Notes: a model not told the origin generated them from the sequence alone. Numbered from the stretch's first letter, positions 15,715-31,228 are shown. The stretch is DNA of 64,000 bases from Candidatus Iainarchaeum sp. (GCA_016187745.1 JACPJC010000006.1:32001-96000), one strand, 5' to 3'. Made by a program: numbers and translations.

Positions 15715-15733
15715 ATGATTTAAGTGTGATAAA

Positions 15734-16096: not shown

Positions 16097-16097
16097 A

Positions 16098-16820: not shown

Positions 16821-16825
16821 TTGAA

Positions 16826-17338
16826 ATGGCAGAGAACAATATGCGCAGTATAAGGGTTGCGAAAATAGTCGTCAACATGGGCGTCGGGCAGACAGGGGAG
16901 GAACTGAAAAAGGCAATGACAATACTTGAGAAAATAACAAATTCGAAGCCGGTTCAGACGCTCTGCAAGATAAAGCAGCCAACATGGAACATAAGGGAAG
17001 GGCTGCCTATTGGGACAAAGGTTACGCTGCGCGGGGAAAAGGCGATTGAGTTTTTGAAAACCGCATTTCTTGCGAAGGAGAAGGCGCTTGAAGCAGGGAA
17101 TTTCGATGAAAGGGGCAATTTCGGCTTCGGGATTGCGGAGCACATTGACATGCCGAATGCAAAGTATGACCCGAAACTCGGAATCAGGGGATTTGATGTC
17201 CTTGTCGCGCTGGAGAGGGCGGGTTACAGGATAAAGAGGAGAAAGCGCGGAAAGCACAGGGTAACAAAAAACCACATCATAGCAAAAAACGAGGCGATTG
17301 AATTCATAAAAAATAATTTCGGGGTTGAGATTAAATGA
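16826..17338 (+). CDS. rpl5: 50S ribosomal protein uL5
   Basis: KIVVNMGVG, PIGTKVTLRG, GNFGFGI.EHID. Confidence 0.96.
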   Translation: MAENNMRSIRVAKIVVNMGVGQTGEELKKAMTILEKITNSKPVQTLCKIKQPTWNIREGLPIGTKVTLRGEKAIEFLKTAFLAKEKALEAGNFDERGNFGFGIAEHIDMPNAKYDPKLGIRGFDVLVALERAGYRIKRRKRGKHRVTKNHIIAKNEAIEFIKNNFGVEIK

Positions 17339-17487
17339 CTGAAAGAATCAGCATCGGGAAGAAAAACAAGAGGACCTGCAAAATCTGCGGGAATGACAAG
17401 GGCCTGATGCAGAAATATGATATTGGGATATGCAGGCGCTGCTTCAAGGAGCGCGCTGATAAGATGGGTTTCAGGAAATACACTTAA
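17335..17487 (+). CDS. rps14: 30S ribosomal protein uS14 (zinc type; absent from the ORF track)
   Basis: Hand translation MTERISIGKKNKRTCKICGNDKGLMQKYDIGICRRCFKERADKMGFRKYT, 50 aa. Confidence 0.93.
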   Translation: MTERISIGKKNKRTCKICGNDKGLMQKYDIGICRRCFKERADKMGFRKYT

Positions 17488-17498
17488 GAGGGGAAAAA

Positions 17499-17888
17499 AT
17501 GACTTCGGACCAACTGATGAATGCTCTGATAAGCATAAAGAACCATGACGCAAAGGCGAAGAGGGAATGCATTGTAAGGCCCGCGAGCAGGCTGCTCGGG
17601 GAAGTCCTGCGCCTTCTGCAGAAAAACTCGTACATAGAGGGCTATGAGTTTGTTGATGATGGAAGGAGCGGGGTTTACAGGATTTCGCTGCTCGGAAAAA
17701 TAAACGAGTGCAAGGCTATAAAGCCGAGATATGCGGTAAAAAGGGACGGGTTTGAGAAATATGAGAAGCGCTATCTCCCCGCAAGGGACGTTGGATTGAT
17801 ATTTGTTTCAGCGCCTTCAGGGGTAATAACGCACACAGAGGCGAAAAAGCGCGAAACCGGGGGAAGGCTGCTGGCATATGTTTATTGA
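17499..17888 (+). CDS. rps8: 30S ribosomal protein uS8
   Basis: INECKAIKPR, YLPA, GGRLLAYVY. Confidence 0.95.
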   Translation: MTSDQLMNALISIKNHDAKAKRECIVRPASRLLGEVLRLLQKNSYIEGYEFVDDGRSGVYRISLLGKINECKAIKPRYAVKRDGFEKYEKRYLPARDVGLIFVSAPSGVITHTEAKKRETGGRLLAYVY

Positions 17889-17906
17889 AGTCATTGAAGT
17901 GAAAAC

Positions 17907-18437
17907 ATGAAAAAATTCGAGAAAATAATTGAACTGCCGGGGGATGTCTCCGCGCAGCTGCAGGGGAAGAGCCTTTCGCTCAAATGCAATAATGCGGAGA
18001 ACAGCAAAAAATTCAAGGCGGCAGGAATAGGGCTTTCGCTCGATGGGAACAGGATCATAATTTCCTCGGACAAGGCCGGAAAGAAAACAGATGCGGTTGC
18101 AAACACGCTTGAGAAGCATATAAAAAACATGATTCAGGGATTAAAGGAAGATTATGAATACAGGCTTTCTGTTGTTTATTCGCATTTCCCGATAAGCGTT
18201 GCGGTGAAGCAGGGCATTGTGGAAGTGAATAACTTCCTCGGGGAGAAGAAGCCGCGCAGGGCAAGGATATTGGGGAAAACAAGGGTTGAAATGAAGGGCG
18301 CGGAAATAACGGTAAGGGGAAACTCCAAGGAAGATGCCGGGCAGACAGCAGCAAACCTCGAGCAGGCAACAAGGGTTTCAGCGCGGGACAGGAGAGTTTT
18401 CCAGGATGGGGTATACATAATCAAAAAGCCGGAATGA
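17907..18437 (+). CDS. rpl6: 50S ribosomal protein uL6
   Basis: YSHFP, NFLGEK, QTAANLEQ, RDRRVFQDG. Confidence 0.95.
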   Translation: MKKFEKIIELPGDVSAQLQGKSLSLKCNNAENSKKFKAAGIGLSLDGNRIIISSDKAGKKTDAVANTLEKHIKNMIQGLKEDYEYRLSVVYSHFPISVAVKQGIVEVNNFLGEKKPRRARILGKTRVEMKGAEITVRGNSKEDAGQTAANLEQATRVSARDRRVFQDGVYIIKKPE

Positions 18438-18441
18438 AAAC

Positions 18442-18834
18442 ATGAAAGAAAATGAAGGAAAAAAGAAAAGGAAGGCGCTTAAGAGGCTGATGAAGGGCAA
18501 GTGCAGGCTCCTGTTCAAGGGAAGGTTCGGAAAGCGCGATGTGAGAAGGAAGAAAAACAAGAAATGGCAGCGCTGGAGAAAGCTGCAGGGAACTGACATG
18601 ATGAAGGAGCAGGAAGACGGGAGAATTCCGGGAACAGGCTACAGGACGCGGAAGGAAATAAGGTTCATGCACCCTTCGGGATTTTATGAGAAAATGATTC
18701 TGAACCTTGCGGACCTGAAGGGAATAAATGCCGAAAATACTGCTGCGAGAATCTCCTCGAAAATCGGGAAGAAAAAGCGCATTGCAATAATTAATGAGGC
18801 GAAAAAGCTCGGCATAAAGCTGCTGAACGCATAA
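18442..18834 (+). CDS. rpl32e: 50S ribosomal protein eL32
   Basis: WRKLQG, GYRT...HPSG, GKKKR; position between L6 and L19e. Confidence 0.88.
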   Translation: MKENEGKKKRKALKRLMKGKCRLLFKGRFGKRDVRRKKNKKWQRWRKLQGTDMMKEQEDGRIPGTGYRTRKEIRFMHPSGFYEKMILNLADLKGINAENTAARISSKIGKKKRIAIINEAKKLGIKLLNA

Positions 18835-18856
18835 GGATGCATAAGGGGAATTCAAA

Positions 18857-19285
18857 ATGGACATAAGGAAAATAAGGAAAATTGCTTCCGAGCTTCTCGG
18901 AAGCGGGGAAACCCGCGTGTGGATTGACCCCGAGAAAACAGCTGAAATTTCAAAATGCATTACCAAGGATGACATAAGGGCGAAAATAAAGGAGGGCGCA
19001 ATAAGGAAAAGGGAGTCCGCATATGCGAGCAGGGGCAGGGCAAGGGCAAGGCACAAGAAGAAAAAATTGGGGAGAAAGCGCGGCTTCGGAAAGAGGAAGG
19101 GCGGAAGGAATGCGCGCTCGGGGCAGAGGAAGTCCTGGATAAGCAACGTCAGGGCGCAGAGGAAAAAAATAAGGGAGCTTAGGGAAAAGGGCGCAATAGA
19201 CCAGAAGAAATACTCAAAGCTCTACAAGATGGTGAAGGGAAATTACTTCAAGGGGAAGAAATACATTGAGGCATTCATAAAATAA
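18857..19285 (+). CDS. rpl19e: 50S ribosomal protein eL19
   Basis: RVWIDP, ITKDDIR, GKRKG, LYKMVKG. Confidence 0.93.
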   Translation: MDIRKIRKIASELLGSGETRVWIDPEKTAEISKCITKDDIRAKIKEGAIRKRESAYASRGRARARHKKKKLGRKRGFGKRKGGRNARSGQRKSWISNVRAQRKKIRELREKGAIDQKKYSKLYKMVKGNYFKGKKYIEAFIK

Positions 19286-19296
19286 GGCGGGAAAAA

Positions 19297-19881
19297 ATGA
19301 CAAAGCAATCTATGTTTGAGGGCAAGTTCAGAAGGCGCAGGGAATGCAAGACTGATTACAGGAAAAGGCTTGCGATGGTCAAATCGGGGAAACCCAGGCT
19401 CATTGCGAGGAAGACCGACCGCTACATAATGGCGCAGGTTGTAAATTACGCTCCAAAGGGGGATGTTGTTGCGGCAGGCGCAAATTCAAGGGAGCTTGAG
19501 AAATTCGGCTGGCCGTTCGGGAAGAAGAATTTGAGCGCGGCCTATCTTACAGGAATGCTTGTTGCGCAGAGGGCGAAGGAAAAGGGCATTTCCGAGGCAA
19601 TATTCGACCTCGGCCTGCAGGCCAATGCCCATGGGGCGAGGATTTTTGCAGTCCTCAAGGGGGCGCTTGACGCGGGAATGAAAATTCCGCATGATGCTGA
19701 AGTGATTCCGAAGGCCGAAAGGATAGGCGGGAAGCACGTAGGGGATTATGCGAAAGCACATCCAAACAGCAAGCAGCAGTTTTCGGAGTATGCGAAAAAG
19801 AAGATTTCTGCAGAGAATATTCCTGCTGCATTTGAGAATGCCAAAAAGAGAATTACTGGGAATGGCGGGGAACAAAAATGA
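19297..19881 (+). CDS. rpl18: 50S ribosomal protein uL18
   Basis: RRRRECKTDY, AAYLTG, GALDAG. Confidence 0.94.
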   Translation: MTKQSMFEGKFRRRRECKTDYRKRLAMVKSGKPRLIARKTDRYIMAQVVNYAPKGDVVAAGANSRELEKFGWPFGKKNLSAAYLTGMLVAQRAKEKGISEAIFDLGLQANAHGARIFAVLKGALDAGMKIPHDAEVIPKAERIGGKHVGDYAKAHPNSKQQFSEYAKKKISAENIPAAFENAKKRITGNGGEQK

Positions 19882-20594
19882 GTGCGAAAAAGTTATCAGT
19901 TGAAGAGCCGGAGCTTTCTGCATCCGAAAGGCTGCTGAGGCAGAATGAAGAGGAGCTTCAGAAGAAGCTTGCGGCATGGGCGCCGAAGACCGAGTTGGGA
20001 AGGATGGTGCAGCGCTCCGAAATTACCGAAATGGACCAGATTTTCGAAAACAATTACAAGATACTTGAGCCGGAAATAATTGACTTCATGCTGCCTAACC
20101 TTGAGGAAAAGATTGTTGAATCGACAAAAACAACAAGGGTTAGAAGGGCCGGAAGGCAGTTCTCGTTCAGGACGGCCGTCCTTGTGGGGGACAGGAACGG
20201 CCATATCGGCCTTGGAATCGGAACTGACAGGGAGAGGCTTCCTGCGGTGCAGAAGGCAACGGAGAATGCGAAAATGCATCTGATGAGGATTAACAGGGGC
20301 TGCGGAAGCTGGGAGTGCAGGTGCAGCATGCAGCATTCTGTGCCTTATAAAATAGAGGGGCGATGCGCTTCCGTAAGGATTGTTCTGATGCCCGCGCCAA
20401 AAGGAACCGGGCTTGTTGTGGGGGAAGAAACAAAGGAAGTCCTGGAAACCGCGGGAATAACAGACGTGTGGAGCAGGACAAAGGGAAGCACGGCAACAAA
20501 GCTTAATTTTGTGAAGGCGACAATAAATGCGCTTGCAAACATATCCAAGGTGCATATTTCTGAAAACATGTCAAGAAAGCTGGAAGTGAAATGA
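19878..20594 (+). CDS. rps5: 30S ribosomal protein uS5
   Basis: WAPKTELG, RGCGSWEC, PAPKGTGL. Confidence 0.95.
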   Translation: MSAKKLSVEEPELSASERLLRQNEEELQKKLAAWAPKTELGRMVQRSEITEMDQIFENNYKILEPEIIDFMLPNLEEKIVESTKTTRVRRAGRQFSFRTAVLVGDRNGHIGLGIGTDRERLPAVQKATENAKMHLMRINRGCGSWECRCSMQHSVPYKIEGRCASVRIVLMPAPKGTGLVVGEETKEVLETAGITDVWSRTKGSTATKLNFVKATINALANISKVHISENMSRKLEVK

Positions 20595-21058
20595 AAATGT
20601 ACGCCGCAATAATGGTAAGGGGATTGATAGGCGCGAAAAAGGACGCAAAAATGGCGATGAGGCTTATGCGCCTGAACAAGCAGAACCACCTTGTGCTGCT
20701 GCCTGAAAATGATAGCAACAAGGGAACGCTCGAGAAGGTCCAGAGCTATGTTACCTATGGAAAGATTGCGAATGATGTGCTTGCAGGGCTTGTTGAAAAA
20801 TGGGCAAGGCTCATTGGAAATAAGAAAATTGATGCGGAGTTCCTGAAGAAAAACAAGTTCGGGAATTTCAATGAGCTTGCAAATGCTCTTATCGATGGGA
20901 AAACTTCGCTTGCGGAGCTGCAGATAAAGCCGGTGTTCAGGCTGCATGCGCCGAGCAAGGGGTATGAGAGAAAGGGCACAAAAAAGCCTTTTTCACTAGG
21001 GGGCGCGCTTGGCCCGAGGGAGAATGAAATAAACAAATTGATTATGAGGATGATTTAG
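20591..21058 (+). CDS. rpl30: 50S ribosomal protein uL30
   Basis: FRLHAP, GALG.R, INKLIMRMI. Confidence 0.93.
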   Translation: MKMYAAIMVRGLIGAKKDAKMAMRLMRLNKQNHLVLLPENDSNKGTLEKVQSYVTYGKIANDVLAGLVEKWARLIGNKKIDAEFLKKNKFGNFNELANALIDGKTSLAELQIKPVFRLHAPSKGYERKGTKKPFSLGGALGPRENEINKLIMRMI

Positions 21059-21143
21059 AATGAAGGAAGGGAATCAGGATTAACCTAAAACTGAAGGGAA
21101 ACCTTGGTTTCCCTGCGGTTTGGATGAGGATGATTTAGAATGA
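21044..21143 (+). mobile_element. putative hairpin micro-element family B (21064-21123) flanked by a perfect 20-bp duplication
   Basis: atgaggatgatttagaatga at 21044-21063 and 21124-21143. The insert is homologous to 27069-27131. Confidence 0.65.
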
Positions 21144-21589
21144 CTGTGCGAAAAAGGAAAAGGAAAAACAAGCTGCGCGGTTCGCGCACTTTCGGAACCG
21201 GAAATACCAAGCATAAGCGCGGCTCAGGATGCAGGGGCGGAAAGGGAAGGGCCGGAAGCCACAAGCACAAGTATTCCAAATATTACGATACGTTTGGAGT
21301 AACGCTGAGGCTGAAGCCAAGGAAACTCAAGGGGAATGAAATGAACCTCTGGCAGGTTGATGAAAACATCGAAGGCTGGCTTTCCGGAAAAATGATTGAG
21401 AAGAGCGGCGACGCTTACGTAATTGACTGCAAAAAGCTCGGAATAAGGAAAATACTTTCAAAGGGGAATCTTGCAAGGAAAGTTATCCTGAGGAATGCGC
21501 AGCTAAGCGAAAAGGCAAGGGAAAAAATAATCGCATCAAAGGGAATCATTGAGGAAGCAGGGGAGAAAAAGGAGAAGGGTGAAAAATGA
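21140..21589 (+). CDS. rpl15: 50S ribosomal protein uL15
   Basis: RGSRTFG.G, RGSGCRGGKGRAG, KILSKG. Confidence 0.93.
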   Translation: MTVRKRKRKNKLRGSRTFGTGNTKHKRGSGCRGGKGRAGSHKHKYSKYYDTFGVTLRLKPRKLKGNEMNLWQVDENIEGWLSGKMIEKSGDAYVIDCKKLGIRKILSKGNLARKVILRNAQLSEKAREKIIASKGIIEEAGEKKEKGEK

Positions 21590-22956
21590 GCATCCTTGAT
21601 GTTTTTGAGCCAATTTACAAGCTGCTTCCTGAGGTGAAGAGCCCGGAAGTAAAGCCGGCGCTTAAGCGCAGGCTCATGTGGAGTGCGCTGGCGCTCCTGC
21701 TGTTTTTCATAATGGGCAATATTACTGTCTATGGGATTGACCTTTCAAGAAGCCTGGGGGGCAATCTCGCGGCATTTGAGCTCATACTTGCAAGCAAGAT
21801 TGGAAGCCTTATAACTGTGGGAATAGGCCCGATAGTGCTCGCATCAATCATACTGCAGATGCTTGTGGGGGGCAAAATAATAAACATAGACCTTTCAAAC
21901 CCAAAGGACAGGGCGCGCTTCACGAGCATGCAGAAGCTGTTTGGGATCGTGCTTTGCTTCTTCGAGGCATTTGTATATTCCGCATTCGGGTTTTTGGTTC
22001 CAGATTCGGGAATGCTTCTGCCTGTAATCCTGCAGATAGCATTCGGCGCAATAATCCTGATATATCTGGATGAAGTTGTTTCAAAGTATGGAATAGGCTC
22101 TGGAATCGGATTGTTTATTGCAGGCGGAGTCGCAGGCTCAATAGGATGGCGCATTTTCGCCCCTTACCTTGTCACAAACGTTGGAATAGTTGAGGGCCTG
22201 CTGCTGCAGATTGTTGGGGAGGCGGTGAAGGGAAGCCTGCTCAATGCGTTTGTCCTGTCGGTTCCGATAATATTTGTGATTGTGATTTTTCTCGTGGTTG
22301 TTTTTGCGGAGGGAATGCACGTAAATATCCCGATTACCGTAGGGAGGAGCGGGGCGACATCGCGCTTCCCCGTGAAATTCCTCTATGTGAGCAACCTTCC
22401 AGTTATACTTGCAATGGCGCTGTATGCGAACCTGCAGATGTGGGCGATAGCGGGCGCAAATATCCCAATACTCGGAACAATGCTCGGCGCAGTAAGCTAT
22501 GCAACTGCAATCCCGAGGGTCGGGGGAACAGCGCTCTTTGAGGCGATTTTCCTGCAGGGGCTTTCGGGAATTGTGATTGCTGAAATCCTGCATGCGGTGC
22601 TTTATATTGCGGTCTTTGTTGTCATTTGCGTTGTTTTCGGAAAATTCTGGGTGGAGATGGCAGGGCAGGGGCCTGCGGCAATTTCAGAGCAATTGCAGAA
22701 AGCCGGAATGTCTATTCCTGGATTCAGGAAGGACCCGCGCATCATAAGGCAGATTTTGGATAGGTACATTCCGCCAATTACAATCCTTGGGAGCGCATTT
22801 GTTGCGCTGCTTGCGGGGCTTGCGGATTTGACCGGAGCACTTGGGAGCGGGACGGGAATACTTCTGACTGTTGGAATTGTTTACAGGCTTTATGAGGAAC
22901 TTGCAAGGGAGCAGCTCATGGAAATGCACCCGTTGCTTGGGAGACTTTTCAAATGA
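21586..22956 (+). CDS. secY: preprotein translocase subunit SecY
   Basis: GIGPIV, KYGIGSGIGLFI, IPGFRKD, GSGTGILL. Confidence 0.97.
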   Translation: MSILDVFEPIYKLLPEVKSPEVKPALKRRLMWSALALLLFFIMGNITVYGIDLSRSLGGNLAAFELILASKIGSLITVGIGPIVLASIILQMLVGGKIINIDLSNPKDRARFTSMQKLFGIVLCFFEAFVYSAFGFLVPDSGMLLPVILQIAFGAIILIYLDEVVSKYGIGSGIGLFIAGGVAGSIGWRIFAPYLVTNVGIVEGLLLQIVGEAVKGSLLNAFVLSVPIIFVIVIFLVVVFAEGMHVNIPITVGRSGATSRFPVKFLYVSNLPVILAMALYANLQMWAIAGANIPILGTMLGAVSYATAIPRVGGTALFEAIFLQGLSGIVIAEILHAVLYIAVFVVICVVFGKFWVEMAGQGPAAISEQLQKAGMSIPGFRKDPRIIRQILDRYIPPITILGSAFVALLAGLADLTGALGSGTGILLTVGIVYRLYEELAREQLMEMHPLLGRLFK

Positions 22957-22990
22957 CTAAGTGGAAGTTTGAGGAAACGGAGGGTTTCTG

Positions 22991-23485
22991 ATGTGGCAAC
23001 TGATAAATCCTACAATTGATATTCTGCTGATTTCAATAGGCATAGCTGCGGTATCGCAGCTGTTCCAGATGAAATTTACAGACAGGAAAAAAATGCGAGC
23101 AATGCAGAAGGAAATGAAGGACAAGCAGAAGAGAATGCGCGAGCTTGCGGGAAAAACCGATGCTAACGCGCTTGCGGAAATCAAGAAACTCGAGCAGGAG
23201 ATGATGCATGCGCTCAATGAGAGCATGAAGCACAGCATGGGCAGCATGATAAAGCTTATGCCGCTTACAGTAATTTTCCTGTTTGTTTACTGGCTGCTTG
23301 GCAGCGCCTATGGGAGCAGCGCGGTGCCAACGCTTTTCCCAATAAGCATAGTCAAGCCCGCAATGGGCTGGATATGGTGGTATGTGATATGCGTATTTAT
23401 AGCAAGCATTGTAATAAGCGCATTAACGAATGCTGTTGAGAACAGGATGGAATCAAAAGCGCAGGGAGTTGCAAAAAATGGTTGA
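22991..23485 (+). CDS. DUF106 / EMC3-TMCO1 family membrane insertase-like protein
   Basis: TM helix, coiled coil with Met-rich stretch, GWIWWY; conserved position after secY. Confidence 0.82.
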   Translation: MWQLINPTIDILLISIGIAAVSQLFQMKFTDRKKMRAMQKEMKDKQKRMRELAGKTDANALAEIKKLEQEMMHALNESMKHSMGSMIKLMPLTVIFLFVYWLLGSAYGSSAVPTLFPISIVKPAMGWIWWYVICVFIASIVISALTNAVENRMESKAQGVAKNG

Positions 23486-23819
23486 ACCTAAGAAAAGGAA
23501 TATGAAAAGGCGCTATGTGAGGACCTCGGGCGGAGTGGTAAGGCTGCATTTCGGAAAGCGCAAGTCCTCAAAGCACGAATGCGCGCTTTGCGGAAGGACA
23601 ATGCACGGGATGCTCCACGGCTCGGGAATAAGCGAGGCGCATGATGCGGCAAAGACGGAAAAAAGGCCAAGCGCACTGCTCGCAGGCGCATTATGCAACA
23701 AATGCAGGGCAGTGGCAACAGAAGAGGCGATAAAAGTAAAGCACGGAATAAAGCCGATTGATGAGGTTGATCTGGGCTTCAGGAAATACGCTGAAATGAT
23801 AATGAAGAGGATTGAGTGA
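23478..23819 (+). CDS. rpl34e: 50S ribosomal protein eL34
   Basis: VRTSGG, CALCG, KTEKRPS...LCNKC. Confidence 0.88.
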   Translation: MVEPKKRNMKRRYVRTSGGVVRLHFGKRKSSKHECALCGRTMHGMLHGSGISEAHDAAKTEKRPSALLAGALCNKCRAVATEEAIKVKHGIKPIDEVDLGFRKYAEMIMKRIE

Positions 23820-24298
23820 ATATGATAGTAACAATATCGGGCCTGCCGGGAACGGATGCAAGGGAGATCTGCAAGCAGATAGCGCTTGAATTCAACCTGC
23901 AGTATGTTTCCCTTGAGCAGATAGGAAAGGGGATTGCGCTTCCGGGCAATGCCGCAAGGATTTCAGAAATGCTCAAGGCGGCAGTGCGCAGGAAAAACTG
24001 CATAGTGGAGCATGCGCTCGCGGGAATAATGCTCAGCAATGCGGATGCGAAGGTCTTCCTGCTTTCATTCAGGCTCAACAGGGCGAGGATGCTTTCCAAG
24101 CGCGAAAAAATAGAATTCGATGCCGCGCTCGGAAAAATCGAGGGCGAAGAGGAAATCCTGGGGAAAATCGCATCAGACGAACTTGGGATTGGAATGGACA
24201 GCCTTAATCCCTATGACCTTGTGCTTAACTCTGACAAAATCGGCAGCAATGATGCGGCGGAGCTAATAAAGAATTACATAAAGAGGGCCGTTGCATAA
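23816..24298 (+). CDS. cmk: cytidylate kinase homolog with degenerate P-loop
   Basis: IVTISGLPGT, YDLVLN; position between L34e and L14e. Lacks GK[ST]. Confidence 0.7.
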   Translation: MNMIVTISGLPGTDAREICKQIALEFNLQYVSLEQIGKGIALPGNAARISEMLKAAVRRKNCIVEHALAGIMLSNADAKVFLLSFRLNRARMLSKREKIEFDAALGKIEGEEEILGKIASDELGIGMDSLNPYDLVLNSDKIGSNDAAELIKNYIKRAVA

Positions 24299-24317
24299 AT
24301 TTTAGGGAGGGAAAAAA

Positions 24318-24539
24318 ATGCCTGCGCTTGAAGTTGGAAGAATCTGCGTGAAAACGCGCGGAAGGAATGCCGGAAAGAGGGTAGCAATAGTGGAAATGCA
24401 GAAGAATTTTGCGGTAATTGACGCGCCGAACATGAAGAGGAAGCGCTGCAACATCCTGCACCTGATTCCGCTTGAGGAGAAGATTGATGTGAACAAGGGC
24501 ACAAGCCATGAGGAAATTGCAAAAATTATGAAAAAATAG
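24318..24539 (+). CDS. rpl14e: 50S ribosomal protein eL14
   Basis: EVGRICVKTRGRNAGK, KRKRCNILHL. Confidence 0.93.
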   Translation: MPALEVGRICVKTRGRNAGKRVAIVEMQKNFAVIDAPNMKRKRCNILHLIPLEEKIDVNKGTSHEEIAKIMKK

Positions 24540-24569
24540 TGGAAAATAGTTTGTGTTTTTAAATAGAAT

Positions 24570-25133
24570 ATGGGGAAAATTAATATGGTTGAAGGAAAAA
24601 TTGCAGAAAATCCGGATGAAATCCGCTATATTGTCAGGATTGTCGGAAAGGACCTTAACGGCCTTTCCCCAATATGGCATGCGCTTCTTGGAATAAAGGG
24701 GATAGGGCAGAGAATGGCAATAATGATGGCAAGGGCATTTGAAAGCAGGACAGGAATCGGATATGATGCTAAGCTCGGGGAGATTCCAGAGGACAAGCAC
24801 AAGGTGCTTGAGGATATTGTGATGCACCCGGGGAATTATGGCATTCCCTCCTGGGCATTCAACAGGGGGAAGGATATTGAGAGCGGGAAAGACATGCATC
24901 TCGTAATGTCGGAGCTTGATTTTTCATTGCGCAATGACTTGCAGAGGCTGAGGGAAATAAAGACCTACAGGGGGATGAGGCACACCTGGGGGCTTCCGGT
25001 AAGGGGCGGAAAAACAAGGACAAGGGCAAGGAAGCGCGGCGTTTCCGTCGGAGTGGAGAAGAAGGCTGCAAAGGCCGCAATGGCCCCGAAGGCCGGGGAA
25101 AAGGCAGAGGCAAAAGAGGAAAAAAAGAAGTGA
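24570..25133 (+). CDS. rps13: 30S ribosomal protein uS13
   Basis: IKGIGQR, YRGMRH.WGLPVRG. Confidence 0.95.
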   Translation: MGKINMVEGKIAENPDEIRYIVRIVGKDLNGLSPIWHALLGIKGIGQRMAIMMARAFESRTGIGYDAKLGEIPEDKHKVLEDIVMHPGNYGIPSWAFNRGKDIESGKDMHLVMSELDFSLRNDLQRLREIKTYRGMRHTWGLPVRGGKTRTRARKRGVSVGVEKKAAKAAMAPKAGEKAEAKEEKKK

Positions 25134-25139
25134 TGAACA

Positions 25140-25748
25140 ATGGGCGATCCTAAAAGGGCCGAAAGGCAGTATGAAATTCCCAGGAAGCACTGGGATCTTG
25201 CCATAATAGAGAATGAGCGCAAGACCATGGAGACCTATGGCCTGAAAAACAAGCGCGAGCTGCACCACCTGCAGGCGATTGTAAAGACCAAAAGGCACAA
25301 TGCGAGAAGTTTGCTTGCGCTTTCCGCGGAACAGCGCGTGAAAAGGCAGTCCGAACTTCTTAAAAGCCTTGAGAGAATAGGATTGCTGCCGGAGCATGCT
25401 ACGCTTGATGATGTTTTGGTTCTTTCAATTGAGGAATTGCTCGAAAGGCGCCTCCAAACTGTAGTGTGGAGGAAAGGGCTTGCAAATACGATAGGGCAGG
25501 CAAGGCAGTTCATAGTGCACGGGCATATTGCGGTTAACGGCAGAAAAATTGACCGGCCGGGCTACATAGTTTCAAAAGGCGAGGAAGAAAAGGTCGCATA
25601 TTATGGGAAGCAAATGCAGCTTGCGGCAAAGGAAAAGGTTGAGGAAATTAAAAAAGGGCAGGATGCGGAGGCGCAGGGAACTGAGGAAGCGGAAGCCGCA
25701 TCGGGGGAAACTGCCGAAGAGGCAATAAATATGGAAGAGGCGTCTTAA
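25140..25748 (+). CDS. rps4: 30S ribosomal protein uS4
   Basis: [29 protein letters not shown]. Confidence 0.96.
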
Positions 25749-25749
25749 A

Positions 25750-26142
25750 ATGAGCGATGAGGAAAAGCGCGGGATTCTGCACATATATGCGAGCCATAAC
25801 AACACGATTCTCCTGCTTACTGATGTGAGCGGCGCGGAAACAATTGCAAAATGCTCCGGGGGAATAGTTGTAAAGGCGCAGCACAAGGAGGCTTCTCCGT
25901 ATGCGGCAATGAAGGTTGCGGAGGTTGTTGCGGAGAAGGCAAGGGAGCGCGGAATCAGGTTCATTGATGTCAAGGTGAGGGCATCCGGAGGCACAAAGCT
26001 AAAATCCCCGGGTCCGGGGGCTGAAGCCGCAATCCGCTCGCTGACAAGGCAGGGGCTTATAATAAGGAACATTGAGAATGTAACTCCGATGCCGCATGAC
26101 GGGACAAGAAGGAAAAGGAAATACAGGAGCAAAAAAAAGTAA
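25750..26142 (+). CDS. rps11: 30S ribosomal protein uS11
   Basis: SPYAAM, PGPGA, TPMPHDG. Confidence 0.96.
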
Positions 26143-26173
26143 ATATTAATTTTTCCTGAAAGAAGGGAAATTA

Positions 26174-26196
26174 ATAAGAAACCGGAGGTTTCTTAT
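26174..26196 (+). promoter_or_regulatory. perfect 10-bp hairpin overlapping the rpoD SD (GGAGG) and abutting the ATG
   Basis: ataagaaacc-gga-ggtttcttat. Confidence 0.55.
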
Positions 26197-26946
26197 ATGG
26201 ATGTAAAAAAAATTGCACAGAAGGAAAATACCCTTAAATTCCTTGTAAGGGGGGTAAATTCCGAATTTGCGAATTCCCTGCGCAGGGCAATAATGGCTGA
26301 TGTGCCCATACTTGCGATAGAGGATGTTTCAGTATATGAAAATTCCTCAATATTATATGATGAGTTCCTTACCCAGAGGCTTGCATTGATTCCATTGACA
26401 ACAGATTTGAAAACATACAAGAAGGGTGAATCCGCTAAAATGAGCATCGATAAGGAAGGGCCCTGCACGGTCTATTCAAAGGACATAAAATGCAGCGATC
26501 CGAAAATTGAGGTAGCGGACAAGCGCATTCCGATTGTCAAATTGCTGAAGGACCAGAAATTAAAGCTTGAGATGAAGGCAGTAATGGGCTTCGGGAAGGA
26601 GCATGCGAAATGGCAGCCTGCGGTTGTTTCCTACAGGCAGCTTGCAACAATAAGCATTGGGAAGGACTGCGACCTGTGCGGGAAATGCATTGAGAACTGC
26701 GCAAAGAAGCTTCTGGAGGCAAAGGCAAAGAAGATTGTCCTGGAAACGCCGATTGAATGCGATTTGTGCGGAAAATGCAGGGATGTGTGCAACCTGCAGC
26801 AGCTTGCGATAGAATACAGCAAGGATGATTTTTTGTTCACTGTGGAAAGCCACGGGGCCCTTGAGGCCTCTGAAATAGTGGAAAAGGCTGCGGAAATCCT
26901 GAAAGACAGGAATTCGGACTTCAGGAAGGAGATTAAAAAATTATAA
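26197..26946 (+). CDS. rpoD: RNA polymerase subunit D (Rpo3) with 2x[4Fe-4S] ferredoxin-like domain
   Basis: ANSLRR, NSSILYDE, EHAKWQP, two CDLCGKC...C motifs. Confidence 0.95.
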   Translation: MDVKKIAQKENTLKFLVRGVNSEFANSLRRAIMADVPILAIEDVSVYENSSILYDEFLTQRLALIPLTTDLKTYKKGESAKMSIDKEGPCTVYSKDIKCSDPKIEVADKRIPIVKLLKDQKLKLEMKAVMGFGKEHAKWQPAVVSYRQLATISIGKDCDLCGKCIENCAKKLLEAKAKKIVLETPIECDLCGKCRDVCNLQQLAIEYSKDDFLFTVESHGALEASEIVEKAAEILKDRNSDFRKEIKKL

Positions 26947-27034
26947 CATTACAATCAGAAACTGCGTTTCCGATACCTTCCTTTGTTTCAAGGGAAACTC
27001 GGACGAGGAGATTAATAAATTATAACATTACAAT
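26927..27034 (-). mobile_element. putative family A hairpin element (26952-26981, minus orientation) flanked by a 29-bp duplication of the rpoD 3' end
   Basis: aggagattaa(a/t)aaattataacattacaat at 26927-26955 and 27006-27034. Confidence 0.65.
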
Positions 27035-27055
27035 TATTATGGGAAAGCCCGGTGG

Positions 27056-27130
27056 AATCCTGAACCTTAAGGGAAAGGGTCAGGATTAGCCTAAAACTGG
27101 GGAAAACCGTAGGTTTTCCGCGGTTTGGAT
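27056..27130 (+). repeat. family B double-hairpin element directly upstream of tRNA-Leu
   Basis: aatcctgaacctt/aagggtcaggatt stem, then ggaaaacc-gta-ggttttcc stem. Homologous to 21064-21126. Confidence 0.7.
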
Positions 27131-27272
27131 GCAGGGGTACCCAAGCGGCCAAAGGGGCAGGTGAGTTTTGATTTGAAAAAAACAAAATTCTGCCAAACTT
27201 AAGGTCTCTTGAAAAAAGGATGGGAAATCCTGTGGCTTAGTGCCTTCAAGGGTTCAAATCCCTTCCCCTGCA
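27131..27272 (+). tRNA. tRNA-Leu(UAA) with two introns (27162-27196 at 30/31; 27204-27226 at 37/38)
   Basis: Acceptor GCAGGGG/CCCCTGC-A, D arm, spliced anticodon arm CAGGA-CTTAAGA-TCCTG, long variable arm, T arm AAGGG-TTCAAAT-CCCTT. BHB motifs at both introns; typical rpoD-tRNALeu-L18e position. Confidence 0.9.
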
Positions 27273-27281
27273 CACCAATCC

Positions 27282-27304
27282 CTTTTCTTTTAGGAAAAGA
27301 AAAG
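27282..27304 (+). terminator. T-rich perfect inverted repeat after the tRNA
   Basis: cttttctttt-agg-aaaagaaaag. Confidence 0.45.
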
Positions 27305-27397
27305 ATCTGGGTTTTACCCCAAAAGAAAATAAAAAATAAAATTCAGGGAAAGAGAAAATAATTTTCGGAAAAAAAATAAAAAATCGGGAATGAGAAA

Positions 27398-27766
27398 ATG
27401 AAAGTTACAGGGCCTACGGAACTCGGAACTCAGGTTCTTATAAGAAGGCTTGAGAAGCTCGGAAAAAGCAGCGGGCAGGCCATGTGGCTTGACCTTGCGG
27501 AAAGGCTGGGAAAGCCGCGCAGGATAAGGCCTTCGGTTAATTTGTGGAAGCTCGGGAAAATGGCAAAGAAATTCCCGGGAAAAACATTGCTTGTTCCGGG
27601 GAAGGTGCTTGGCTCGGGCTCGCTGGATTCCGCGCTTTCAATATGCGCGCTTGAATTTTCCGCTGGCGCAATGAAAAAAATCTCCGGGCACAAGGGAAAG
27701 GCGCTGACGCTGGATGAATTCGTAGGAAAGCCCGCAGATGCGAAGGACATTGCAATAATAAAGTGA
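27398..27766 (+). CDS. rpl18e: 50S ribosomal protein eL18
   Basis: VNLWKL, VPGKVLGSG, FSAGA..KI. Confidence 0.93.
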   Translation: MKVTGPTELGTQVLIRRLEKLGKSSGQAMWLDLAERLGKPRRIRPSVNLWKLGKMAKKFPGKTLLVPGKVLGSGSLDSALSICALEFSAGAMKKISGHKGKALTLDEFVGKPADAKDIAIIK

Positions 27767-27771
27767 TTTTT

Positions 27772-28197
27772 ATGACAACAATAAATGCAGAAAACCTGAT
27801 TCTGGGAAAGCTTGCGACAAATGTTGCAAAGCGCCTTATTTCAGGGGAAACCATAGCCATTGCAAACGCGGAAAAATCCGTAATGCTCGGGACAAAAGAG
27901 GCAAAGGCATACAAGTTCAAGGTGAGGCTGGGAATCGCGTACAAGGGGATGCCTGAGCGCGGGCCGAAATACTCGAACAGGCCTGAAACCATAATGAGAT
28001 ATGCAATAAGGGGCATGCTGCCAATGGAAAGGGCCTCGGGGAGGGATGCATTCAGAAGGCTGAAGGTTTATTCAGGCCTGCCAATGGAGCTTAAGGACAG
28101 GAATTTAAAAACAGTTCCTGATGCAAAGTGTAAAAGCGACAGGTTTGTTTATCTGGAAGAGGTTTGCAAGCATCTGGGATATGAGGCGAAAGCATGA
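27772..28197 (+). CDS. rpl13: 50S ribosomal protein uL13
   Basis: ILGKLA..VAK, NAEK, IRGMLP. Confidence 0.94.
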   Translation: MTTINAENLILGKLATNVAKRLISGETIAIANAEKSVMLGTKEAKAYKFKVRLGIAYKGMPERGPKYSNRPETIMRYAIRGMLPMERASGRDAFRRLKVYSGLPMELKDRNLKTVPDAKCKSDRFVYLEEVCKHLGYEAKA

Positions 28198-28628
28198 GCG
28201 CGGAGCAGAAGGCATCAAAAAAGGCAAGGCGCAAGGGCGTTGTAACAAAGGCAAGGCGCAAGACCGCAATAGCGCACGCCATTCTCAGAAAGGGCACCGG
28301 GAAAATAAGGGTGAACAGGATGCTCCTTGGAATTGTGCAGCCAAGGTATGTGCAATTGCTCATAAAGGAGCCTATAACACTTGCGGGGGAGCTTGCAAAT
28401 GACATTGATGTTGATGTAAGCGTAAAGGGCTCGGGGCAGATGGCGCAGGCGGTTGCCGCGCGCGGAGCAATAGCAAAGGCGCTGGTCGCATACACCAATA
28501 GCCCTAAGCTTAAAAAGGAATTCCTGGATTACAACAGGATGCTTATTGTTGATGACATAAGGCAGACCGAGCCCAAGAAGCCTTTGGGAAAAGGCGCAAG
28601 GGCAAAGAAGCAGAAATCAAAGAGATGA
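28194..28628 (+). CDS. rps9: 30S ribosomal protein uS9
   Basis: RKTAIA, GSG..AQA.A, EPKK..GKGARAK.QKS.R. Confidence 0.95.
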   Translation: MSAEQKASKKARRKGVVTKARRKTAIAHAILRKGTGKIRVNRMLLGIVQPRYVQLLIKEPITLAGELANDIDVDVSVKGSGQMAQAVAARGAIAKALVAYTNSPKLKKEFLDYNRMLIVDDIRQTEPKKPLGKGARAKKQKSKR

Positions 28629-28683
28629 CAAACATGGGGTTAATAAGGGCATTATGCCATTATAGCAGAAATCAAAGAGGTAA
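28609..28683. mobile_element. putative family C hairpin element (28635-28666) flanked by a 16-bp duplication of the rps9 3' end
   Basis: agcagaaatcaaagag at 28609-28624 and 28664-28679. 28635-28666 is 29/32 identical to the reverse complement of 35422-35453. Confidence 0.62.
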
Positions 28684-28700
28684 AATTCAGAGGTGAAAAA

Positions 28701-28898
28701 ATGATTGTTCCGGTAAGATGCTTTTCATGCGGGAAGGTTCTCGCTGGCATGTATGACGAGTATCTGCAGCGCATAAGAAAGGGGGAAAGCGCGCAGAAGG
28801 TCATGGATGCTTTGGGAATAGAAAGATACTGCTGCAGGCGCACTATTTTCGCGCATGTTGATTTGATGGATGAGATGCTTAAATTCCCAAGGCAGTAG
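28701..28898 (+). CDS. rpoN: RNA polymerase subunit N (Rpo10)
   Basis: PVRCFSCGK, RYCCRR. Confidence 0.97.
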   Translation: MIVPVRCFSCGKVLAGMYDEYLQRIRKGESAQKVMDALGIERYCCRRTIFAHVDLMDEMLKFPRQ

Positions 28899-28912
28899 AT
28901 GGAGTTGCAATA

Positions 28913-29731
28913 ATGAGCGAAGAAAAAAAGCACACTGAAAAGGCGGAAGCAGTGAAAACTCCGCAGAATGGGGATAAGCCGATTCCATCCCCGCAGAACG
29001 TTTACGGGAATGAGGAGTTCCAGATTTCAGGGAAAACGCTTGTTCCTGCCGACGTTTACCTCAAGGCGGGCGTGCACATTGGCACAAAATTCAAGTCCGG
29101 GGACATGTCGCGCTACATTTACAAGCAGAGAAGGGACGGCCTGAAGGTTATGGACATTGCGACATTTGATGAGCACCTGAGAATTGCTGCTAATTTCATC
29201 GCGCAGTTTGCCCCTGAAAGGGTTGCGATTGTCTCGCGCAAGCTTTACGGCCAGAAGCCAGTGCAGGAATTCGCTGAATCCATAGGCGCGCGCGCATTTG
29301 TTGCTAGGTTTGTGCCGGGAACCTTCACAAACCCCGAGGGGAAGGAGTTTGTCGAGCCGCAGCTTGTAATTGCAAATGACCCCGGGGCGGATGCGCAGGC
29401 AATATCGGAAGCAACAGTAATGAAAAGACCTGTAATCGCATTCTGCAATACCGACAGTTCGCTGAAAAATATTGACTTGGCAATCCCGATGAACAACAAG
29501 GGAAGGAAAAGCCTTGCGCTTGCGTACTGGATACTCACAAGGGAAGTCCTGCTCCTGCTCAACAAGATAAAGAGCCCTGCGGAATTCACAAAAAAGGTTG
29601 AGGATTTTGAATATGTGCTGAAGGAAGGGGCCTCTGAATCCGATGAGGGGGAAGAGGGCGGCAGGAAAAAAAGCTATGGAAGGGACAGGGAGCGCACTGA
29701 AAGAAGGGGATTCAGAAGGCGCGAATACTGA
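28913..29731 (+). CDS. rps2: 30S ribosomal protein uS2
   Basis: YLKAGVHIGT, RFVPGTFTNP, IPMNNKGRKSLAL. Confidence 0.96.
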   Translation: MSEEKKHTEKAEAVKTPQNGDKPIPSPQNVYGNEEFQISGKTLVPADVYLKAGVHIGTKFKSGDMSRYIYKQRRDGLKVMDIATFDEHLRIAANFIAQFAPERVAIVSRKLYGQKPVQEFAESIGARAFVARFVPGTFTNPEGKEFVEPQLVIANDPGADAQAISEATVMKRPVIAFCNTDSSLKNIDLAIPMNNKGRKSLALAYWILTREVLLLLNKIKSPAEFTKKVEDFEYVLKEGASESDEGEEGGRKKSYGRDRERTERRGFRRREY

Positions 29732-29750
29732 TTCTCCAGAATGAAAAAAC

Positions 29751-30563
29751 ATGGATTCAAGGAAGTGCGCGGTCTCGGGCTCTTTTTACCCTTCAAACGC
29801 TGAAGAATTGAAATACGCTGTTTCTGGATTTTTCGCAAATGTTAAGCTGATGCATAAGAACAAAACTTCCGTAATTGTCGCTCCGCACGCGGGATACGGA
29901 TATTCGGGGCAAACGGCGGCATACGCCTACTCTGTTTTGAATTCCGCTGAAACATTTGTAATCCTTTGCCCTAATCACACAGGGCTGGGAAGCGCGGTTT
30001 CAATCTCCTCAAGTGCGCAATGGGAAACCCCTCTGGGAAATCTGCAGGTTGATGCGCAATTTGCTGATGCGCTTGCTGATGCTCTCAGAATTGAACGTGA
30101 TGATTTAGCGCATTTGCAAGAGCATGCAATTGAAGTGCAGCTCCCCTTCATAATCCGCAAATTCGGGAACAAAGTGAAAATCGTTCCGATTTGTTTAGCA
30201 ATTGATGATTTTAATTCCTTAATAAAAGTTGGGCAGGCGATAAGTGAAATTCAGGCTAAAACAAAAACAAAAATCTGCGTCATTGCAAGCTCTGATTTCT
30301 CGCATTTCATCCCTTTGGAAAGCGCGAAGGAGAAGGATTCTGAGGCGATAGAAGAAATCAAAAAACTGGATGTCTCCGCTTTCTACAAATTGGTGCATTC
30401 CAGGCGCCTAAGCATCTGCGGATACGGGGCGATAATTGCGGCAGTTAAGTATGCGAAGGAAAAGGGGATGGAGCGCGCTGAGTTCCTGCGTTACTCAACA
30501 AGCGCCGATGCAACGCGCGACAGGAGCAGTGTTGTGGGCTATGCCGCATTGGCATTTTACTAG
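29751..30563 (+). CDS. MEMO1 family protein (AmmeMemoRadiSam protein B)
   Basis: VSGSFYP, PHAGYGYSG, EHAIEVQLPF, ASSDFSH, CGYG, VGY. Confidence 0.93.
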   Translation: MDSRKCAVSGSFYPSNAEELKYAVSGFFANVKLMHKNKTSVIVAPHAGYGYSGQTAAYAYSVLNSAETFVILCPNHTGLGSAVSISSSAQWETPLGNLQVDAQFADALADALRIERDDLAHLQEHAIEVQLPFIIRKFGNKVKIVPICLAIDDFNSLIKVGQAISEIQAKTKTKICVIASSDFSHFIPLESAKEKDSEAIEEIKKLDVSAFYKLVHSRRLSICGYGAIIAAVKYAKEKGMERAEFLRYSTSADATRDRSSVVGYAALAFY

Positions 30564-30598
30564 TTAGATTTAAATTGAACATGAACGTTAGATTATCT

Positions 30599-31228
30599 AT
30601 GAAACTGAACTTTAAGGATCCAACAGTCATTTCCCTTGTTCTGGCAAACCTGATTACAATTGTCATAGCGGTCTGGTTCAGCTGGAACCTGCTTGATTTG
30701 CTCTGGGTTTACTGGTGGCAGAGTATAATAATCGGGTTTTTCACCTTTTTTAAAATATTGTCGCTTAAGGATTTTTCTACAAAGAACTTTACCATACACG
30801 TTAGTGGCATAATTGCTGGCACAACCAAAGGGCAGCCAAAGCCGGTAAAAGTTGGCAAGGAGGGTGCTGCCCTCTTTTTCGCATTCCACTACGGCTTTTT
30901 TCATTTGGGGTATGCTGTTTTTTTGATGACTCTGCCATTCGGAACTTCCGCTAATTTCGGATATGTGGCGCTTGCTGCAGCAGCCTTTTTAATAAATCAT
31001 CTTTTTTCCTTTTTGTATTACAGGGGCCGGCAAAAGAAAAAGCAGAACCTTGGGGCAATAATGCTTTCCCCCTACAAGAGGATAGTTCCCATGCACTTCA
31101 CAATGATTGCAGGCGGGTTTTTAGCAGCCGGCGCCATATTGCTTGTTATATTCCTCCTTCTTAAAACAGCCGTTGATGTCATAATGCACGCTATAGAGCA
31201 CGAGGGGCGGCAGCCGGATAAGCTGTAA
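30599..31228 (+). CDS. membrane protein (DUF6498-like)
   Basis: YWWQS.IIG, FF.FHYG.F, PYKRI.PMH, LKT..D...H; start uncertain. Confidence 0.7.
   Translation: MKLNFKDPTVISLVLANLITIVIAVWFSWNLLDLLWVYWWQSIIIGFFTFFKILSLKDFSTKNFTIHVSGIIAGTTKGQPKPVKVGKEGAALFFAFHYGFFHLGYAVFLMTLPFGTSANFGYVALAAAAFLINHLFSFLYYRGRQKKKQNLGAIMLSPYKRIVPMHFTMIAGGFLAAGAILLVIFLLLKTAVDVIMHAIEHEGRQPDKL

Follow-up and report, generated by a model that had tools for sequence, protein, structure and literature searches.

Transposable elements of the miniature inverted-repeat type (MITEs) and small palindromic repeats, namely, the repetitive extragenic palindromic and bacterial interspersed mosaic elements (REP/BIME), Correia elements and Rickettsia palindromic elements, are among the described systems closest to the short hairpin modules considered here, which lie between duplicated sequences at three operon junctions (rpl30/rpl15, rpoD/tRNA and rps9/rpoN) of Candidatus Iainarchaeum sp. 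The DNA analyzed (hereafter, the window) is a stretch of 64,000 nucleotides, C5:32001-96000 of genome G000. The likeness consists of short length (24–110 nt), structure, multiple copies, non-coding and non-autonomous character, intergenic and sometimes in-frame position (compare rps17 below), and nesting. The target duplications of MITEs are typically short and of fixed length, whereas the duplications here vary from 6 to ~40 bp, the modules of family B lack terminal inverted repeats, no parent insertion sequence (IS) was found, and the 3′ junction is fixed and the 5′ one variable. The relevant section of PMC10969869 lists archaeal MITEs in Sulfolobus, Halobacterium and others. Putative mobile promoters, described as very similar upstream sequences or leaders that precede unrelated genes, also across taxa, form another comparable group, whose mechanism was stated to be unknown (Nijveen, Matus-Garcia and van Passel 2012; PMC3575422). 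The family B copies of genome G025 resemble them in being preceded by a sequence similar to a B recognition element and TATA box (AAGATTTAGGAAAAATATATAG); however, empty sites and flanking duplications are seen here, modules also occur before stable RNA genes and in tRNA introns, and their promoter activity is only putative.

Target-primed reverse transcription, as known for long and short interspersed nuclear elements (LINE/SINE) and processed pseudogenes, yields duplications of up to ~20 bp, a precise 3′ junction with microhomology and a variable 5′ end, and uses abundant small structured RNAs as templates. Variable duplications, a precise 3′ junction and a variable 5′ end are also found here, but no reverse transcriptase (RT) was found in G000 or G004, A-tails are absent, some cargo contains promoter DNA, and the duplications reach ~40 bp. 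The att-type integration at tRNA or gene 3′ ends and the integration by Cas1 (casposons, CRISPR repeats) are similar in that repeats of tens of bp restore the 3′ end of the target, and one family B case lies at a tRNA 3′ end (L095); they differ in that here there is no adjoining integrase and no common core, Cas1 was not found, the lengths are not ruler-like, and the inserts are as short as 30–60 nt. Among IS groups, IS1634/IS1549 is the one for which long variable direct repeats are reported; the passages of PMC2266710 on this family give repeats of 8–514 bp and frequent occurrence in Euryarchaeota and propose no model. These are, however, elements of 1.5–2 kb with a DDE transposase, and no PF01609 match was found in G000 or G004. 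An archaeal family of small structured RNAs multiplied like a mobile element is presented, in the part of PMC6009581 concerned, by the MITE-like C/D box small RNA elements of Pyrobaculum calidifontis. Those elements have flanking inverted repeats and C/D boxes, whereas no C/D box pattern was seen by eye in the modules and no Rfam family matched any insert or module; a C/D box small RNA was dropped as a candidate on this reading by eye and because the Pyrobaculum elements are built differently. Assignment to each of the enzyme-defined classes fails on the enzyme, and the modules are classed here as a variant of MITE-like or mobile-promoter elements, perhaps driven by the host. No description of archaeal hairpin modules of 24–60 nt with variable target duplications of 6–40 bp was found in the limited open-access literature covered, supplements excluded, which is no proof that none exists.

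The initial annotation, made from the sequence of the window, had reported that the 3′ end of the upstream gene is duplicated around a short hairpin insert at the three junctions, and all three duplications are indeed present (20/20, 28/29 and 16/16 identical nucleotides) and were re-assembled independently. According to the direct-repeat search, the copies are spaced by 80, 79 and 55 nt around inserts of 60, 50 and 39 nt, respectively. In all three pairs the stop codon of the upstream gene lies within or abuts the first copy and the second copy precedes the downstream start or tRNA leader; the upstream stop and the downstream start are both kept, as the annotation had held, and the insertions leave both genes intact. 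The junctions sit in a large ribosomal-protein/RNA-polymerase gene cluster, in which L30, L15, SecY, S13, S4, S11, RpoD, L18e, L13, S9, RpoN and S2 were confirmed by Pfam. The genome (964 kb, 10 contigs, 45% G+C, completeness estimate 91%) appears, judging from its size and gene content, to be that of a DPANN-type archaeon, and no relative from its own family was present among the genomes compared; surveys of the order covered 196 genomes. The features of the junctions, with the related contigs L013 and L014 considered further below, are as follows (copies a and b are the first and second copies of each duplication; SD, Shine–Dalgarno).

20591–21058, + strand: rpl30 (ribosomal protein L30, Pfam PF00327), TAG stop within copy a
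21044–21063, + strand: rpl30/rpl15 copy a, 20 nt, comprising the end of rpl30, an SD-like GAGGATGA and the ancestral ATG start codon of rpl15; single copy in L013 and L014
21064–21123, + strand: rpl30/rpl15 insert, 60 nt, family B module, extended hairpin
21124–21143, + strand: rpl30/rpl15 copy b, serving rpl15, start at 21140
21140–21589: L15 (rpl15), Pfam
26197–26946: RpoD/Rpb3-like, Pfam
26927–26955, + strand: rpoD/tRNA copy a, 29 nt, rpoD end with stop TAA
26956–27005, − strand: rpoD/tRNA insert, 50 nt, family A hairpin GGAAGGTATCGGAAAC-GCA-GTTTCTGAT and 24 nt of extra 5′ sequence
27006–27034, + strand: rpoD/tRNA copy b, 28/29 identical, A/T mismatch also in L013
27131–27273, + strand: type-II tRNA with intron, Leu-like (aragorn -i; Rfam tRNA 23.3 bits)
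28194–28628: S9 (rps9), Pfam
28609–28624, + strand: rps9/rpoN copy a, 16 nt, rps9 end
28625–28663, + strand: rps9/rpoN insert, 39 nt, 10 nt extra and a family C palindrome (GGGGTTAATAAGGGCATTATGCC...)
28664–28679, + strand: rps9/rpoN copy b, running on into the ancestral AGG TAA and the rpoN leader
28701–28898: RpoN, Pfam

The insert at rpl30/rpl15 has an outer helix AAACUG/CGGUUU and an inner helix GGGAAACC/GGUUUCCC and is 91% identical to C6:15020-15077 and 90% identical to the tRNA-leader copy of L013. At rps9/rpoN, the first bases of the insert complete AGA TGA for rps9, and reading of the sequence confirmed that both copies end K-R-stop, AGA TGA versus AGG TAA. Recurrence of 16-mers within 150 nt was observed at 198 positions, mostly coding tandem repeats, versus 0–2 in each of 10 second-order Markov shuffles of the whole genome; the exact pairs of at least 16 nt within 250 nt numbered 35 genome-wide, mostly tandem repeats inside single open reading frames (ORFs). 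It should be noted that positions 14232-14258 and 17069-17095, in the L29 and L5 coding sequences, share 22 nt exactly (27 nt at 93%), both encoding LAKEKAL; thus, biased coding sequence can give long matches without insertion. A bulge-helix-bulge intron at the junctions was rejected as a candidate, since the required helix cannot be built from direct repeats and neither ORF is disrupted.

The designation of the gene downstream of rpoD as tRNA-Leu calls for a correction. It is an intron-bearing type-II tRNA, whose copies in other organisms skip 27162-27223; default ARAGORN misses it, the program finds it only with introns allowed and then mis-calls it Phe, and its Rfam score lies under the cut-off of 29 bits. 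The Leu identity is suggested by the long variable arm and by the CTTAAG loop, as we read them.

The first explanation to be considered is an assembly or scaffolding artefact, in which allelic bubbles joined in series would produce repeats of about k-mer length; the lengths of 20 and 28–29 do resemble k − 1 of k values common in assemblers. However, independent k = 31 Logan contigs of runs X1 and X3 (the likely source study) bridged 20900-26980 and 27275-28800 with 0 differences. The rpl30/rpl15 and rps9/rpoN duplications were thereby bridged identically in both runs, and the rpoD/tRNA duplication was covered by two contigs that overlap inside the insert because the repeated hairpin breaks the assembly graph. 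The 28/29 repeat is, moreover, inexact, and the same geometry occurs in other genomes and on a separate metagenome contig, so that the probability of an artefact is close to negligible.

Comparison with sister genomes, which had been proposed in the initial annotation, yielded empty sites for two of the three junctions. The metagenome contig L013 is 92% identical to the window over 14244-25133 and 87% identical over 25120-30748. The rpl30/rpl15 junction is uninterrupted in L013 and in L014 (80% identical), reading ...GATT-ATGAGGATGATTTAGAATGA-CTGTG, and rps9/rpoN is uninterrupted in L013, reading ...AGCAGAAATCAAAGAG-GTAA...; in addition, X5 and X6 contigs from two other studies join 28608 directly to 28664, skipping 55 letters, with 16 letters shared. 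In distant loci, the estimated L30–L15 spacer was −7 to 13 nt in 14 of 15 cases and 37 nt in one, versus 81 nt here, and the estimated S9–RpoN spacer was 4–27 nt in all nine, versus 72 nt here. Since these junctions are compact both in L013 and in the outgroups, the insert and the duplication are derived in this lineage at rpl30/rpl15 and rps9/rpoN.

The history of the rpoD/tRNA junction is different. In L013 the duplication is present too, down to its A/T mismatch, but the first copy ends after 20 nt (29 nt here), and a 57-nt family B module stands in place of the inverted family A module. The duplication is thus older than the split of G000 and L013, and at least one insert has been replaced. 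The claim that insert and duplication arose there as a single event does not hold, as the duplication predates at least one insert, an order of events that the annotation itself had named as contrary to its reading. Altogether, the junctions of G000 and L013 (~92% identical) differ at four places within 16.6 kb of ribosomal-protein genes. One of these belongs to L013 alone: at 10813-10925 (rps13/rps4, equivalent to window position 25133) it carries its own 106-nt insert with a 6-nt AAGTGA duplication, absent from G000, which is a family D module with a nested A2 hairpin.

These observations raise the alternative that the duplication came first, i.e., that a slippage-type tandem duplication made a dispensable spacer in which modules landed or were exchanged later. 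The shared rpoD/tRNA duplication and mismatch, with differing inserts and first-copy lengths (29 versus 20 nt), agree with this order, as do short duplications with only 4–16 nt of filler at C3:48952, C8:25696 and C8:33560, a tandem repeat of 77 nt at S5/L30 in L022, and a 29-nt repeat (83% identical) before rpl18e. In at least nine cases, however, the 3′ end of the module lies 0–5 nt from the right copy with no remnant of a larger duplicated unit, and such exact landing at the boundary each time is unlikely unless duplication and insertion were coupled; furthermore, no relative has an insert-free duplication at rpl30/rpl15 or rps9/rpoN. We therefore consider this alternative improbable. As to the last two of these loci, the repeat before the rpl18e start occupies 27331-27359 and 27371-27399 (spacing 40; one copy in L013), and in L022 (6924-7104, another family) the 77-nt unit recurs ~2.3 times, each with the S5 stop, the L30 start and T-rich filler.

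The inserts are members of dispersed structured families, designated A/A2, B, C and D, and each small insert has, as had been annotated, a homolog in a leader region within the window: B at 27075-27128, A before rpl3 and spt4, and C before rpl7ae. The module copies of the window outside the duplications are given below.

9323–9343, + strand: family A hairpin, rpl3 leader
15017–15037, + strand: family A hairpin, lying in frame within the 5′ portion of the rps17 coding sequence (14918–15316), EVIGNAVSD
27075–27128, + strand: resident module of family B, separated from the tRNA 5′ end by 2 nt; −21.9 kcal/mol, z −3.6
27274–27329, + strand: family D terminator-like module CCAATCCCTTTTCTTTTAGGAAAAGAAAAG..., with raised depth in the independent contigs
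35425–35453, + strand: family C palindrome, rpl7ae leader, with flanking 9-nt direct repeat ATGAACCCC
43214–43234, + strand: family A hairpin, 12 nt before spt4

Family A/A2 is a hairpin of 21–26 nt, (R)GGAAGGT-ATCGGAAAC-GNA-GTTTCTGAT, with 19 credible copies among 21 regular-expression matches; A2 differs from A1 by the compensatory change of AAC/GTT to ACC/GGT, and a G·T wobble is conserved. Family B (~60 nt) is represented by five intact copies and two interrupted by A. Its outer helix is AAACUG/CGGUUU, while the inner helix varies in sequence with pairing kept, and its helix covaries with GC, AU, GU and CG alternatives across 16 copies from five genomes and L013 (folding energies of −19 and −21.9 kcal/mol). 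The two termini of the B module (AAGGAAGGG ... GCGGTTTGG) do not form inverted repeats, whereas A and C are whole-element hairpins. Family C, found at 10 loci, is the palindrome TAAGGGCAT-N-ATGCCCTTA, often after GGGGTT. Family D, with ~13 loci, is a terminator-like hairpin plus tail, CCAATCCCTTTTCTTTTAGGAAAAGAAAAGGTCTAGGTTTTACCCCAAAAGAAAA, that starts at tRNA CCA ends, after the 16S 3′ end and after ORF stops (e.g., C1:38390, C3:8796, C4:30185 and C4:30509). A module of family A stops 1 nt short of the 16S 5′ end and one of family B ~35 nt short of the 23S 5′ end. Of the 45 predicted tRNAs, 4 have A, B or C 1–4 nt in front of them; the others lack a module and show a TTTAAA-type box ~30 nt upstream. 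The modules may serve as "punctuation" in the form of leaders and terminators. Hairpins similar to those of family D, CCTTTTCTTT-N-AAAGAAAAGG, are present within tRNA introns at C8:3860-4004, C1:292925-293048 and C4:30246-30380. At C4:9649-10603 of G000, aragorn -i predicts a tRNA-Ser with an 869-nt "intron" containing two D-type modules 638 nt apart, which may be a split or interrupted tRNA locus.

The modules are multi-copy and polymorphic in presence and absence between close relatives, and further insertions were found beyond the three junctions. A fourth fresh case, at C5:120687/120782, has a 29/29 duplication of promoter-like sequence around a 66-nt insert consisting of two A hairpins; in two B copies, a nested A is accompanied by a 6-nt AAAACT duplication, and the C copy at C1:7805 has an 11-nt flanking repeat. 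In the control, common substrings of at least 11 nt occurred at 26 of 2000 random sites, not at the offsets seen for the C copies; for most older module copies, the flanking repeats were not above background. Resident modules are also exchanged in place: besides the replacement of A by B between G000 and L013 at rpoD/tRNA, rps17 of L013 has an A1′ variant (+3 nt, EGIGNEGFLI) where A1 is found here, and the segment is missing in more distant relatives.

In the order as a whole, the A/A2 pattern was detected in 16 of the 196 genomes, from 11 families beside that of G000, versus 0 with the reversed-pattern control. Strong matches to B were found in G000, G004 and G025, with weaker ones in six more of the 196. 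Three of nine B loci in other genomes had flanking repeats (17, 14 and 18 nt, at a gene end, an intergenic site and, in L095, the tRNA 3′ end, respectively), as did 4 of 40 A2 loci (19, 29, 12–15 and 13 nt). Duplication lengths thus vary within a family, being 6, 12–15, 13, 19, 29 and 29 nt for A/A2 and 14, 17, 18, 20 and 20 nt for B; they span 6 to ~40 bp over all cases and 16–29 bp at the three junctions. The right copy begins 0–5 nt past the module 3′ end, whereas 0–44 nt of unrelated sequence separate its 5′ side from the left copy. At the 3′ junction, 1–3 nt are ambiguous between module and target, namely, AT(G) for B at rpl15 and TG at both fresh A sites; the closest templates elsewhere are 90–91% identical. 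A2 hairpins also occur inside tRNA genes, as apparent introns, or adjoining them (L126, L132, L145, L147 and L151, from G001, G053, G004 and G048), which suggests a link of the modules to the gain of tRNA introns.

The same geometry with larger cargo had been annotated at rtcB, and this was borne out: the last 40 nt of the gene recur at 38/40 identity, 625 nt downstream, around a toxin–antitoxin pair.

6151–6190, + strand: rtcB 3′ end, copy a of the 40-nt duplication
6191–6775, + strand: cargo of 585 nt, with DUF7557 (6251–6499) and a ParE-family toxin (6496–6759)
6776–6815, + strand: rtcB end, copy b, 38/40; both differences synonymous in the rtcB frame, stop TAA versus TAG

Exact repeats of 16–41 nt flank other larger cargo in G000, none of which encodes a recognizable transposase or integrase. 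These candidates, recognized by their repeat geometry, are putative insertions and include the following.

Candidate: 208-nt Zn-ribbon ORF, 18-nt repeat including the stop codon
Candidate: 199-nt segment with a small hydrophobic ORF, 16-nt repeat over the SD and ATG
Candidate: 1.27-kb segment after a Pyr_redox_2 gene, repeat of 27 nt exact and then 15 nt diverged
Candidate: repeat-flanked AAA_14/DUF4143 ATPase gene
Two further candidates: repeats duplicating TATA-like sequence
C1:249572–249612 / 253730–253770: 4.1-kb segment in a perfect 41-nt direct repeat, with a radical-SAM/B12-binding protein and small winged-helix-turn-helix-like proteins

The last of these is perhaps an integrated element, and its 41-nt motif recurs once more, in part, at C1:255060. 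For the small modules, an origin as the remnant of an integrated element was rejected, as it needs repeated deletions leaving exactly one B unit by the right repeat.

Differences between the two copies, where there are any, are concentrated towards the stop codon and for the most part synonymous. This was observed at rps9 (28621-28628 versus 28676-28683), rtcB, C8:55637/56934 of G000 and L148 (G004:C42). In these cases TAG or TGA is the stop of the functional copy and TAA that of the relic, and at rps9 the relic form is the ancestral one, as L013 shows. Such differences would be expected from recombination with a diverged donor carrying the gene end together with a module or cassette, in which case one copy would be donor-derived; the route would be Campbell-type integration of a circle or illegitimate recombination facilitated by homology. 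The endings GCG..GGG TAG versus GCT..GGA TAA at rtcB and AGA TGA versus AGG TAA at rps9, and those at C8:55637 and in G004 L148, are in line with this explanation, and the part of PMC3293823 on integrating archaeal elements describes duplication of parts of tRNA genes. Nevertheless, the copies at rpl30/rpl15 (20/20) and at the non-coding site C5:120687 (29/29) are identical throughout, many targets are non-coding promoter-like sequence, and no integrase lies beside any case, the single PF00589 match being at the edge of contig C10; moreover, a donor merely shifts the origin of the first duplication elsewhere. This origin is accordingly regarded as very unlikely. The insert swap at rpoD/tRNA and the differences at the stop end do keep alive both the duplication-first explanation and that of a donor with a gene end.

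A search for RT, Cas1 and HUH enzymes had also been proposed, and none was found in G000, where there was no match to RVT_1 (PF00078), Cas_Cas1 (PF01867), Y1_Tnp, DDE_Tnp_1 (PF01609), Resolvase (serine recombinases), rve, Transposase_mut (IS256-type) or Prim-Pol. RVT_1, DDE_Tnp_1 and TnpB were likewise without a match in genome G004 (94% complete), in which 12 A2 hairpins, several copies of B and four or more repeat-flanked cases occur, and the number of RVT_1 (PF00078) matches was 0 in G004, G025, G054 and G044. G001 has two RVT_1 matches and DDE genes too; since G000 and G004 have neither, there is no consistent partner enzyme. No integrase adjoins any case (the only PF00589 match is a fragment), the repeat sequences all differ between insertions with no common att core, and the duplication lengths are not ruler-like (16, 20 and 29 nt within 7.6 kb). 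Self-BLAST of G000 revealed no IS-like multi-copy repeat of at least 120 nt. It should be noted that the absence of an enzyme from incomplete bins is not proof, as plasmids, viruses and IS are often lost in binning. Three TnpB-like (Cas12f1-like TNB) genes, their ends conserved upstream and downstream, are present in the genome, which has no Y1 transposase, at C8:69456-70601, C1:262318-263544 and C1:264891-266141. TnpB was rejected as the mobilizer, as the TnpB flanks share nothing with families A–D and TnpB, above the cut-off in 37 of the 196 genomes, was not found in the hairpin-bearing G004, G048 and G049.

The enzyme search bears directly on classical non-autonomous transposition, in which an enzyme would act in trans from an element missing in the bin and make long variable staggered cuts (an IS1634/IS1549-like DDE enzyme, an RT or a new family). 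The discrete, family-specific module ends and the precise 3′ junction would be explained in this way, and the patchy distribution over 11 families with near-identical stems suggests horizontal spread. G001 carries RT and DDE genes, and the direct repeats of 8–514 bp given for IS1549/IS1634, with no model in the passages concerned (PMC2266710), offer a precedent. On the other hand, G000 (91%) and G004 (94% complete) have fresh duplications but neither RVT_1 nor DDE_Tnp_1, and G004 has no TnpB; the same geometry is shared by four or more families whose ends are unrelated and by unrelated cargo of 0.2–4 kb; and B has no terminal inverted repeats, nor are there poly-A tails. Transposition of this kind is therefore a possible but doubtful explanation.

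The explanation favored here, with moderate confidence, is that the modules are non-autonomous mobile units whose insertion proceeds by target-primed copying of a template or by fill-in at a staggered break. The precise 3′ junction with possible pairing of 1–3 nt, the variable 5′ extent and the long variable duplications argue for such a process, the logic of which is that of LINE/SINE retroposition and of template-switch or fill-in models for small duplications with filler. The variable length within a family, the common geometry of unrelated families and cargo and the failure to find an enzyme argue against a cut-and-paste transposase or a Cas1-type ruler. The event would be a target-primed copying of a template at a staggered break or stalled fork: a 3′ end in the target would base-pair over 1–3 nt with the 3′ terminus of a module copy, either RNA or single-stranded DNA, and would copy it, the second strand would be opened at a variable distance upstream, and fill-in would create the duplication. 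As no enzyme specific to the elements was found, the replication or repair enzymes of the host would be the likeliest agents. Short-patch conversion would later exchange resident modules in place for other family members. In compact operons the stop overlaps the downstream ribosome-binding site (RBS) and start; therefore, the duplication leaves each gene with one intact overlap and the insertion survives. Survival only of those events that duplicate the stop/RBS overlap may explain the three fresh cases within 7.6 kb of the cluster. As regards the annotation's proposal of a single mechanism inserting short structured sequences with long variable duplications, the empty sites at rpl30/rpl15 and rps9/rpoN agree with it and the older duplication at rpoD/tRNA does not. 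As for its comparison with target-primed reverse transcription, Cas1-like integration or templated break repair, neither RT nor Cas1 was found in G000, and target-primed copying or templated repair is still the best guess, which we infer.

Several observations weigh against the favored explanation. The rpoD/tRNA duplication is common to G000 and L013 while the inserts differ, and one insertion-with-duplication event cannot give both alleles. Discrete, family-specific module ends are what a sequence-specific enzyme would give, and G000 is 91% complete. No donor identical to any insert was found in the assembly (at best 91% for B and 26–33 nt for A), and junction microhomologies of 1–3 nt are weak evidence. 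The clustering of copy differences at the stop end is not predicted by simple fill-in and would be predicted by a donor with a homologous gene end. Finally, the larger cargo brings its own promoter-like DNA (rtcB), which argues against an RNA template for such cases.

The template may be RNA or DNA: released leaders and trailers would fit the unit boundaries, whereas promoter-bearing cargo and composite modules argue for DNA, and the unit 3′ ends 1–4 nt before tRNA and 16S 5′ ends are only suggestive of a discrete RNA. A bolder proposal, which we regard as unlikely, is that host enzymes without RT or transposase copy hairpin RNAs processed from leaders, trailers and introns, or single-stranded DNA versions of them, and paste them into the chromosome in a retroposition-like, target-primed manner, punctuating operons with new leaders and terminators and seeding tRNA introns and in-frame peptides throughout this order of small-genome archaea.

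If the favored explanation is true, insertion of such modules would be a main route by which, in very compact archaeal genomes, essential operons obtain and rearrange their leaders and terminators, and possibly promoters within them. The long variable duplications would, on the same condition, explain how insertion into overlapping stop/start junctions can be harmless. As the hairpins are found within tRNA introns and also, in frame, within the gene for a ribosomal protein, the process would bear on how archaeal tRNA introns are gained. A mobility pathway based on host enzymes alone would, if confirmed, be new for prokaryotes.

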